Shown in pieces: positions 11,853 through 60,597 of a DNA stretch of 64,000 nt. The stretch is taken from positions 158,136 through 222,135 of the forward strand of contig WJMJ01000046.1 in assembly GCA_014728035.1 (NCBI GenBank). The letters are read 5' to 3'. How positions within the stretch are numbered: position 1 is the first letter of the stretch; the number at the start of each line of letters is the position of its first letter. The translations under genes and the position numbers were made by a program. The DNA is from Promethearchaeota archaeon. GTDB taxonomy: Archaea; Asgardarchaeota; Thorarchaeia; Thorarchaeales; Thorarchaeaceae. The notes under the pieces were generated by a model. That model had not been told where the DNA came from, did not search any database, and was given only the letters and a program-made list of their open reading frames with translations.

Positions 11853-12143
11853 TCAAGACTTCCAAATTTCAAGCAAGTTCTTAAGAGACCGAGCACGCAT
11901 GTCTTCATTACGATATCTGTAAATTTTAATTCTTCCAAATATTTTTTCCTCGATTAAACCAGATTCGAGTAGGACTTCTAAATGTGATTTAGTGGTACTA
12001 TGATTCAATCCAACTCTTCGACAAATCTCGGATATATTCAACTCTGTTTTATGTGCCAGTTCTTTAAGAATTTTAATTCTCCCTTTTGATGAAAGTAATT
12101 CTTCAATAGGAATACGTGATTCGAATTCGGATTCATCTTTAAT
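11853..12143 (-). CDS. ArsR-like winged-helix protein downstream of cdc6
   Basis: LNISEICRRVGLNHSTTKSHL..L...GLI HTH. Frame is open upstream of TTG 12041 through IEELLSSKGRIKILKEL; probable ATT start at 12143. Confidence 0.75.
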   Translation of the reverse strand: MKDESEFESRIPIEELLSSKGRIKILKELAHKTELNISEICRRVGLNHSTTKSHLEVLLESGLIEEKIFGRIKIYRYRNEDMRARSLKNLLEIWKS

Positions 12144-13371
12144 GAGAATTGCCTCCTTCAGTTAGTAGGTCTTGAATGAATTGTTCCAGTTTGTCTGCGG
12201 GAATCTCAGAAAGTCCAATCAATGTTGTTTGCCCTCTTTGACCAGTACTGGATTTCTTTGTATCCAATATATCGTGAGCTGTTAAATCTTGAACCCATTC
12301 CCAAACTTGAGTATGTGCACGTGCTTCTGTTTTATATTCTTCACAAACAGGATGGTACTCATCCTCAACCTCACCCATTGTTACATAAGCTGCTCGTGCT
12401 TCTTTCAGCCGTCTAGCTGTAGCAAGAAGCAATAGCTTATGATGGAAAGGAAGAGTTGTAAAAACTTCGTTGATTAGTTCCGGATGGGTATCAGCTTTTG
12501 CACGACGAACATAATCAGGAATTACAATGTTGTTTTGTTCATGATCTGCTTGTTTTCCTGCACGCCATAACAACTCTATTGCATATCTTGCATCACCACG
12601 TTCTGCAGCAATATCAGAAATAACATGCACTGTATCATCCAAAACAGTTTTTTTTTCAAACGCCATTTCAATTCTATCATATAAAATATCCATTAATTCA
12701 GCGGCATTGTATTTCTCAAAACGTAAAATATTCCGTTGTAATGTACTTAACGTGCTAGAGTCAAATAATTCATCACTAAGAGGAATGTTTCGTCCAATTC
12801 CAATCATTGAAACTCTTTGAGGTGCATTTAACCGATCATCCATTAGACGAGTTAAATCGTATATTATATCCACACCTTTGTTCCTGATGAAATAATCCAA
12901 CTCATCTAGCACAAGTATTAGAAAACGATCTTCCATATCAAGAACTTCAACTATTAATTGAAGTATCTCTTCTGGAGAATGACCACGTCTTGGGAATTTT
13001 GGTCTAAACTCACGCAAAATCCTAAGAAAAACAAGATACGTACTCTTGTTAACTCTACAATTTATGTGAATTTTATGAAGTCGAATATTTCTTCTATCCG
13101 CTGCTTGAATCAATTGCTCTGTGAATTTTTTTGTGACTGCAGTTTTGCCAGTTCCAACTGAACCTTCAATGATGAATTTTTGACTTGTTCTACCAGGTGA
13201 AGAAATAAGGCTCTTAAAAGATTGAGCTAAAATCCGCAATTCTTCATCCCGATGATGTAGCCTTTCAGGAACATAATCAATAGACAGGAAATGCTCTGAT
13301 TTAAATACACTGTCCTTACCTAATTCATCCTCAACAAAGTCCCGAGTCATCACTCTCGTGAATATTGGCAT
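12139..13371 (-). CDS. cdc6: Orc1/Cdc6 replication initiator
   Basis: DYVPERLHHRDEE, GSVGTGKT, INCR, LDELD, GDARYAI, C-terminal winged helix ending GQRGQTT. Confidence 0.95.
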   Translation of the reverse strand: MPIFTRVMTRDFVEDELGKDSVFKSEHFLSIDYVPERLHHRDEELRILAQSFKSLISSPGRTSQKFIIEGSVGTGKTAVTKKFTEQLIQAADRRNIRLHKIHINCRVNKSTYLVFLRILREFRPKFPRRGHSPEEILQLIVEVLDMEDRFLILVLDELDYFIRNKGVDIIYDLTRLMDDRLNAPQRVSMIGIGRNIPLSDELFDSSTLSTLQRNILRFEKYNAAELMDILYDRIEMAFEKKTVLDDTVHVISDIAAERGDARYAIELLWRAGKQADHEQNNIVIPDYVRRAKADTHPELINEVFTTLPFHHKLLLLATARRLKEARAAYVTMGEVEDEYHPVCEEYKTEARAHTQVWEWVQDLTAHDILDTKKSSTGQRGQTTLIGLSEIPADKLEQFIQDLLTEGGNSH

Positions 13372-13444
13372 ACTTTTAACTTAAAAGGATTATGTGGTTG
13401 TTCATTTAAACAGATATTCGGAGAGGGGGTGCCCGAAAGTATTG

Positions 13445-13520
13445 TTGGCGAGCTCCTTACTCAAGATCTCTATCATCATCATAAAGATTCAAAGGGGTCA
13501 TATCAGTCATCGCTCGCCAA
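13445..13520 (-). ncRNA. Box C/D guide sRNA (predicted pre-tRNA position-34 guide)
   Basis: 9-bp terminal stem TTGGCGAGC/GCTCGCCAA closing a K-turn (GAU bulge, GA/GA, CU/AG). Internal D' UUGA and C' AUGAUGA. Guides complementary to pre-tRNA-Leu and pre-tRNA-Met in this window. Confidence 0.75.
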
Positions 13521-13560
13521 GTAATAAGAGAAGATTTTGTCCTTAAGTATACCTAAAAGA

Positions 13561-13663
13561 TGCGAGCGCCGGGATTCGAATTCCCGCGATTTCACAAAGT
13601 GCAAAATCGTCCCGGGTCAAAAGCTTGGGAAGCTTCCGTCCTAACCAACTAGACTACGCTCGC
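13561..13663 (-). tRNA. tRNA-Gly(CCC) with 30-nt intron at 53/54 (13581-13610)
   Basis: GCGAGCG/CGCTCGC acceptor stem, GAAGC-TTCCCAA-GCTTT. Full BHB (CCCG/CGGG helix, GGA and AAT bulges); splicing restores CCGGG-TTCGAAT-CCCGG. Confidence 0.9.
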
Positions 13664-20924: not shown

Positions 20925-21034
20925 AGATAATGAGCAATCGTTATAGTAATCTACAGCTATATCGTTGTTAAAAACCGCCCGAAACCCTTATTTGGAAATA
21001 GACTGGTTCTGAACCGCTCCGGACTGGTGCATCT

Positions 21035-21138
21035 GCTCCGGTAGATCCGTAATCAATTTATGGAGCCGAGTGTAGTCCGGCCCAGCATGAAGGACTCTCG
21101 ATCCTTCGACCCGGGTTCGAATCCCGGCCGGAGCACCA
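21035..21138 (+). tRNA. tRNA-Glu(CTC) with 26-nt intron at 10/11 (21045-21070)
   Basis: The 3' strand CCGGAGC-A-CCA needs 5' GCTCCGG (21035). BHB-like motif: CGGT/GCCG helix, AGA and AGT bulges, TCCGT/ATGGA inner stem. Confidence 0.85.
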
Positions 21139-54940: not shown

Positions 54941-55057
54941 GCGGGAGTAGCCAAGACAGGCCAAAGGCGGCGGACTTAAGATCTTATGAATTAAGGGGTC
55001 ATCTGATGAGAGATCCGCTCTCATAGGAGTCCAGGGGATCGAAGCCCCTCTCCCGCA
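54941..55057 (+). tRNA. tRNA-Leu(TAA) with 32-nt intron at 37/38 (54981-55012)
   Basis: GCGGGAG/CTCCCGC acceptor stem, long variable arm, CTTA/TGAG BHB helix. Confidence 0.9.
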
Positions 55058-55111
55058 CTTTTTCATATCATTCAGAGATATCCTTATCGGTAGTATACAC
55101 AATCAAAATTT

Positions 55112-60427: not shown

Positions 60428-60597
60428 GCCGCAGTGGCCTAGCCTGGTTAGGGCGCGAGACTCATAATCTTCCCGGACTATTCCGGGATGAAGAATGGGG
60501 TCATTGAGTGTGCGTCCCCCAATGGGCAATCTCGAATCGTTATGAGATTTCCTCTTATCGAGAAACGTCGAGGGCTCGAATCCCTCCTGCGGCACCA
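60428..60597 (+). tRNA. Elongator tRNA-Met(CAT) with two introns (37/38: 60467-60528; 44/45: 60536-60565)
   Basis: GCCGCAG/CTGCGGC-ACCA. CTCA/TGGG and TCTC/GAGA BHB-type helices; removing both introns restores a standard cloverleaf. Confidence 0.85.

Follow-up and report, generated by a model that had tools for sequence, protein, structure and literature searches.

The minus strand of the stretch of DNA analysed here (the window; 64,000 nucleotides, contig C9:158136-222135 of the 4.3-Mb genome of a Thorarchaeota member, an Asgard archaeon) encodes, at positions 13445-13520, a box C/D sRNA with two conserved guides. One of these, the D guide, pairs around the wobble nucleotide of three tRNAs; the D' guide is complementary to a tag of 7-10 nt in the precursors of two of them. 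The interaction of D' guide and tag was strongly supported by covariation; the biochemical outcome proposed for it is inferred. Probably, the D guide acts directly on tRNA-Leu(CAA), to which it is perfectly complementary, while the tag tethers the imperfectly matched tRNA-Met and tRNA-Leu(UAA), so that one guide replaces sR47, sR48 and sR49.

The 76-nt sRNA (13445..13520, minus strand) is supported by its fold, its homologs, its pairing and weak Rfam matches to C/D-box families. It is closed by a 9-bp terminal stem, whose 5' arm (13512..13520, minus), 97% paired across the alignment, pairs with a 3' arm (13445..13453, minus) that was recovered in both the fold and the alignment. Box C (AUGACUG, 13504..13510, minus) and box D (AGGA, 13454..13457, minus) adjoin this stem in a terminal C/D K-turn with a 3-nt G-A-U bulge and tandem sheared GA pairs, in which positions 5-6 of box C co-vary with box D. 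Between these boxes lie, all on the minus strand, the D' guide (13494..13503), box D' (UUGA, 13489..13492), an internal 3-bp stem and loop that closes the C'/D' K-turn (13478..13488), box C' (AUGAUAG, 13470..13476) and the D guide (13459..13469), which has 10 invariant nucleotides. Boxes D, D' and C' were placed by alignment of copies. The internal K-turn showed invariant GA pairs and a stem that was 100% paired, with compensatory changes in 3/3 pairs; its sequence is AUC/GAU here and GUC/GAC in 65/67 distinct Thorarchaeota copies. In all 67 of these copies the D' and D spacers are 11 and 12 nt long, respectively, and the eleventh base of the D guide is variable (G in 64, A in 3). The boxes of the window copy deviate from consensus; many homologs carry canonical boxes. 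The terminal stem, its K-turn, the co-varied boxes C and D, and box D' had all been located correctly by the original prediction. Box C', which it had read as AUGAUGA, was shifted to AUGAUAG (13476-13470), 3-6 nt further 3' and beyond the internal stem.

Relative to shuffled sequences, the fold of the sRNA was stable (z = -3.15). Homologs were found in 22 of 24 relatives from the same family and in one further relative from the same order. In an alignment of 24 copies, 89.9% of cells were paired, as compared to 32-49% in slid controls, and both sides had changed in seven pairs; none of 500 shuffles matched the observed pair statistics. Both guides were invariant in this alignment of relatives, while box positions varied as pairs. 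At gathering thresholds, Rfam yielded no sRNA family at 13445-13520; ranked by E-value, only generic C/D-box matches appeared, which were weak and below gathering scores. Taken together, the sequence evidence indicated, beyond chance expectation, that 13445-13520 (minus) is a box C/D sRNA.

The sRNA gene is intergenic. On the minus strand, 41 nt separate it from the upstream tRNA-Gly(CCC) gene (13561-13663), and cdc6 (12139-13371) follows downstream. A TATA-like element (13542..13549, minus), approximately 25 nt upstream of the sRNA, was seen again in relatives, a recurrence that makes it probable that the sRNA has its own promoter. Several other features were observed nearby. Directly after the 3' stem, at 13415-13440 (minus), nearly all Thorarchaeota copies share a conserved motif, ACTTTCGG followed by ACC, which may represent a 3' extension, a terminator or a protein site. 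In the cdc6 promoter region (13380-13415, minus), a TATA-like element is preceded by a conserved near-palindrome to which a regulator may bind. The tRNA-Gly(CCC) gene (minus strand) has a T-arm insertion and an intron; it was found by Rfam and missed by ARAGORN.

When the D guide was compared with the 23S rRNA and every tRNA gene of the genome, its best matches were tRNA-Leu(UAA), tRNA-Leu(CAA) and tRNA-Met, the last in a tie with tRNA-Leu(UAG). The first three all place guide position 5, the N+5 base G13462, opposite nucleotide 34. As originally predicted, pre-tRNA-Leu(UAA) (54941..55058, plus; 32-nt intron at 37/38) pairs at 11/11 positions (54974..54984, plus) with a single G:U, at U34, and elongator pre-tRNA-Met(CAU) (60428..60597, plus; an intron at 37/38 and a second insertion near the variable loop) pairs at 9/11 positions (60460..60470, plus), Watson-Crick at C34 and mismatched at nucleotides 36 and 37. 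The fifth guide base thus occupies the place foreseen for it, and the suggestion that one guide may serve several tRNAs agreed with the three tRNAs matched in the nucleotide-34 register. The second insertion of elongator tRNA-Met (60535-60570, plus) also occurs in a relative from the same genus and is absent at that site in the other relatives.

A tRNA-Leu(CAA) gene with an intron in its anticodon region had been proposed as the perfect target. Such a gene, missed by ARAGORN, was found on contig C9 near 13320 and pairs with the D guide through 10 Watson-Crick bp. The tag that its intron was expected to hold was absent from it and from all 21 Thorarchaeota tRNA-Leu(CAA) genes, so that this part of the prediction failed; the recommended search for the exact 11-mer returned no tRNA, as base 11 of the actual gene is different. 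Calculated D-guide duplex energies were -15.0 kcal/mol for Leu(CAA), -13.0 for Leu(UAA), -8.6 for Met and -5.2 for the Ile2-type CAU tRNA, which pairs weakly and has no tag. Nor was a tag visible in the initiator tRNA-Met gene of the genome. Separately, the D guide forms 10 bp, including two G:U, with the tag-less tRNA-Leu(UAG) (C9:137605-137721, minus; -12.0 kcal/mol), which is possibly an off-target or a fourth substrate.

The D' guide showed a different selectivity. In the same genome-wide scan of tRNA genes and 23S rRNA, an unbroken match was confined to Met and Leu(UAA), both of whose introns contain the predicted motif GGGGTCAT (Leu(UAA), 54995..55002; Met, 60497..60504; both plus). Duplex energies were -13.6 to -13.8 kcal/mol on these tagged precursors and -7.2 kcal/mol on Leu(CAA). 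The two-part pattern of D-guide target and tag occurred three times in the genome (Leu(UAA), Met and the antisense of the sRNA itself), as compared to approximately 0.1 expected occurrences.

The D guide had been predicted to be intron-specific by reading the anticodon/intron junction. Since the introns of Met, Leu(UAA) and Leu(CAA) all start with AUC, like exon nucleotides 38-40, the 10 invariant bases of the guide fit the spliced tRNA equally well, and the eleventh base is not conserved. This comparison indicated that any intron dependence stems from the D' arm and not from the D guide. None of the five other 37/38 introns in the genome copies the start of its exon in this manner, a small-number hint that the guide meets tRNA precursors. 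RNAfold analysis of the pre-tRNAs yielded no tRNA-like intron folds.

A separate guide for Met or Leu(UAA) was not found in the host genome, and a scan of the phylum for dedicated Leu(UAA) guides returned matches at chance level. A Met-perfect guide was found in none of 400 Asgard genomes; many Thermoproteota have one. A Met-perfect candidate with a CUGA box at C9:36323 was rejected, as it lies within a 721-codon open reading frame and has no box C.

The sRNA is deeply conserved, with copies across Asgard archaea and Thermoproteota. A strict pattern of the guide pair was found in approximately 80 Thorarchaeota records and also in Odin-, Freya/Jord- and Wukong-archaea, Bathyarchaeia, Thermoprotei and Altiarchaeales. 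A relaxed pattern matched 133/400 Asgard genomes with one control match, a count that includes a few chance matches, and 131/301 Thermoproteota genomes with two control matches, a count that includes separate Met-specific guides in addition to a few chance matches. Matches in bacteria were discarded as chance, since they had neither stems nor boxes, with the exception of one Thorarchaeota-like copy in an Actinomycetota bin. Thorarchaeota-type copies in Actinomycetota and Hermodarchaeota bins and a Jord-like copy in an Altiarchaeales bin (L216, L189, L132) are probably on misbinned contigs.

Across these lineages the D guide is constant, and the D' guide is lineage-specific and is followed by the tRNA tags. 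In Thorarchaeota, a guide end UGACCCC faces a tag GGGGUCA. Corresponding guide and tag sequences are UGACCCA and UGGGUCA in family f9, UAGCCCU and AGGGCUA in f5, UAACCCU and AGGGUUA in genome G075, UGGCCU and AGGCCA in f29, and CAGCCCU and AGGGCUG in f33. With a weighted run of at least 7, the D' guide of a genome matched its own Met precursor in 48/50 cases, its own Leu(UAA) precursor in 32/39 and its own Leu(CAA) precursor in 1/27. In permutations using one genome per lineage (the lineages being partly dependent, with seven guide boundaries placed manually), own-pair scores were 84 for Met (permuted, 60.7 ± 4.0; 10 distinct guide cores) and 95 for Leu(UAA) (permuted, 74.2 ± 4.1), and neither was reached in 100,000 permutations. 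A concerted change of guide and tag across approximately 10 lineages is thus strongly supported by the comparison. The covariation that the original prediction had anticipated among relatives was in this way seen at two levels, in the pairs of boxes and stems and between guide and tag.

It could be argued that the tag reflects shared ancestry or an intron-folding element and that the real D' target lies elsewhere, for example in rRNA. The tag resembles the tRNA D-loop, to which the D' guide fits in some Thermoproteota (in these, the last base of the D guide changes with nucleotide 31), and one Odinarchaeota 16S rRNA has an 8-nt match of the Thorarchaeota type. The 7-nt tag was nevertheless absent from the 23S rRNA of the host and from two Thorarchaeota 16S genes, the 16S gene of the host itself being a fragment; the remainder of each intron diverges freely among relatives, and the lineage-specific compensatory changes in guide and tag largely refute this explanation, which we consider very improbable.

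The Met tag was present in 77/85 Thorarchaeota genomes. As exceptions, two Bathyarchaeia genomes have the guide and lack the Met tag. In Thermoproteota genome G670, the introns of Met and Leu(UAA) share a tag-like motif that pairs with a one-base bulge, and a further group of Thermoproteota has separate perfect Met guides. In many Thermoproteota, an sRNA was also observed whose D guide matches Met perfectly and whose second guide is conserved and ends in GGAAAAGCC.

Across lineages, the tag follows the position of the intron, and several of them hold it inside an insertion 5' of the anticodon, in the D-arm region of Leu(UAA) or Met. Of 43 displayed Thorarchaeota Leu(UAA) genes, 29 have an anticodon intron, and all of these hold the tag core inside the intron and none has the 7-nt tag upstream. 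The other 14 genes are intron-less; 11 of them have a tag 5-35 nt upstream of the gene, and three lack a full tag. Two further intron-less genomes with an upstream tag bring the total to 13 from five genera; related genomes do not count as independent observations, and 7 of the 13 belong to one genus. The tag-bearing stretch upstream of these genes may be a leader or an unrecognised acceptor-stem intron. A separate conserved element was observed 40-75 nt upstream of tRNA-Leu(UAA) in Thorarchaeota relatives (e.g., L439, L444, L437 and L039) and is absent in the host genome. It consists of a tRNA-like start (GCGG) and approximately 13 nt able to pair with the variable arm of tRNA-Leu, with which it co-varies in G016 and G020, and it may be a leader guide, a chaperone strand or a hidden intron.

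The portability of the tag also bears on whether the D' guide serves to direct methylation within the tag, thereby marking the intron or leader for stability, circular intron fate or splicing control. In nearly all genomes, a Watson-Crick pair occupies the N+5 position of the D' duplex (here, at the fourth G of the tag), which counts against a plain tether and makes methylation of the intron possible. Marking as the purpose of the D' guide nevertheless appears improbable, given that the base facing N+5 varies between lineages (G in most, C in f29 and f30), that the register is shifted by approximately 2 nt in f5, f16, f17 and f27, and that the tag is held at three different precursor locations.

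In the mechanism that we consider probable, the sRNA would be expressed and would form a standard box C/D particle together with L7Ae, Nop5 and fibrillarin; genes for fibrillarin, Nop5 and L7Ae-family proteins are all encoded in the genome. The D guide would then methylate the C34 ribose of tRNA-Leu(CAA) through its perfect duplex of 10 bp, whether or not the intron is present, like sR47. In Met and Leu(UAA), to which the D guide fits poorly, the tag, located outside the mature tRNA in an anticodon intron, a D-arm intron or the 5' flank, would pair with the D' guide and hold the precursor on the particle. The second duplex of approximately -13.7 kcal/mol that these precursors gain would allow the weak D duplex to form ahead of splicing or trimming. 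Such simultaneous binding of both arms would be compatible with either order of the two sites, given the two-fold symmetry of the particle. Because the tag exists only in the precursor, the imperfect substrates would be modified before processing. One sRNA would cover the wobble base of the tRNAs that read UUG, AUG and UUA, and the tag-less initiator tRNA-Met and Ile2 would be excluded.

A Watson-Crick pair at N+5 has been reported to be essential for C/D guide activity (PMC6009581). Such a pair was found on C34 of Leu(CAA) and Met, and on U34 of Leu(UAA) a G:U was found in every genome examined. This G:U conflicts with the Watson-Crick rule, makes binding of Leu(UAA) without methylation a real possibility, and makes Cm34 on Met likelier than Um34 on Leu(UAA). 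For stable duplexes, a mismatch outside guide positions 3-5 did not reduce activity, a result obtained with single mismatches only (PMC1635284); the pair of neighbouring mismatches in Met (guide positions 7-8) lies outside the sensitive positions and exceeds the single ones of that study.

The sRNA could instead have two separate jobs, in which its D guide methylates C34 of Leu(CAA) only and its D' arm folds, paces or protects the Met and Leu(UAA) precursors, as a chaperone or in the timing of splicing, with no methylation of their nucleotide 34. Such a division would respect the Watson-Crick rule at N+5 (PMC6009581), would have a precedent in conserved guide pairings without methylation (PMC4644070) and would agree with the observation that in Asgard archaea the D guide shows no drift toward a Met or UAA match. 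It leaves unexplained, however, why tags occur only in tRNAs whose anticodon loops match the D guide with nucleotide 34 in register as well, why their introns copy the exon with an AUC start that five other 37/38 introns lack, and why a separate Met guide is missing. On balance, we regard separate jobs as rather unlikely and tethered methylation as the preferred reading.

Among known guides, the closest family is sR47, and not the intron-reading guides of Met to which the original prediction had referred. In Pyrococcus abyssi, sR47 guides Cm34 of tRNA-Leu(CAA) and methylates in vitro both a tRNA-Leu transcript and a 24-mer oligonucleotide without a second duplex (PMC3413156). The window sRNA shares with sR47 the same 10-nt target core around the CAA anticodon, as present in the sR47 substrate oligonucleotide, and the D-box register on C34. 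It differs in giving no match to the Rfam sR47 model RF01131 even at E ≤ 10, in its degenerate, co-varying boxes and stem-closed C'/D' K-turn, and, relative to sR47 as described in the literature searched, in a second guide that co-evolves with tags in two other pre-tRNAs.

In Euryarchaeota, sR49/sR-tMet guide Cm34 of intron-containing pre-tRNA-Met (PMC2584109; Joardar 2011 on sR-tMet, as represented in PMC4033218). Like these, the window sRNA would be a trans-acting C/D sRNA that addresses nucleotide 34 of elongator Met before splicing. The D guide of sR49/sR-tMet is perfect on Met and pairs through its 5' bases with the first bases of the intron, and their D' guides differ by species (PMC2584109). 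In contrast, the D guide of the window sRNA matches Leu(CAA), has two mismatches on Met, and leaves the intron to be read by the D' guide at a distant tag. By these sequence features, the window sRNA is not a member of sR49/sR-tMet.

Pyrococcus uses a separate position-34 guide for each of Leu(CAA), Leu(UAA), Met and Trp, four in all (PMC7994747); here, one sRNA apparently serves three of the same four. Position-34 guides in Pyrobaculum likewise have a single tRNA target each (PMC6009581), and surveys describe position-34 guides as single-target and tRNA guides as usually having an empty second arm (PMC6009581, PMC7994747). In double-guide rRNA sRNAs with one imperfect arm, the two arms pair with a single RNA, at sites within 100 nt, and are mutually stabilising (PMC4644070, PMC6009581). 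The second site of the window sRNA, unlike theirs, lies in discarded precursor sequence, is relocated between lineages and would decide which tRNAs are substrates. An intron is also involved in wobble methylation by sR50, a guide encoded in the pre-tRNA-Trp intron. There the intron itself is the guide, whereas here it would be a docking site for a guide that is encoded separately, in an intergenic region. In human cells, SNORD97/SCARNA97 direct RNA-guided Cm34 on elongator tRNA-Met (PMC6601510), with a perfect single D-box guide to Met and no precursor tag. In the literature searched, a co-evolving intron tag was not described, and an earlier mention of pairing between a D' guide and an intron in Joardar 2011 or Clouet d'Orval 2001 is possible.

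The persistence of archaeal tRNA introns still awaits an explanation. Those of Asgard archaea are the subject of a 2026 preprint that makes no mention of guides, sRNAs or methylation (10.64898/2026.10.13.758758). Tethered methylation would give two such introns, those of Met and Leu(UAA), a specific function that is testable by mutation. It would also broaden the rules for C/D guides to include a second arm that acts as a substrate-selecting tether, multiple wobble targets per guide and possibly methylation through G:U, in the lineage closest to eukaryotes, in which Cm34 of Met is likewise RNA-guided. In its most general form, which we advance tentatively and rate as somewhat short of probable, the proposal is that a single C/D guide reads portable address tags in the tRNA introns and leaders of Asgard archaea and part of the Thermoproteota. 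Such a tag would license wobble methylation of imperfectly matched tRNAs, including methylation via G:U, and would set elongator Met apart from initiator Met and Ile2. Maturation of Met and Leu(UAA) would require the intron or a substitute leader, and losing an intron would be tolerated mostly where another part of the precursor has regained the tag.

Two further observations concerned tRNA genes of the host genome. The tRNA-Glu(CUC) gene (21016-21137, plus) is interrupted near the acceptor stem and D arm and was partly seen by Rfam. On a 26-kb contig, a dense array of 19 intron-less tRNA genes (C26:11286-25121) was unlike the tRNAs of the host, which suggests a phage-like or contaminant origin.
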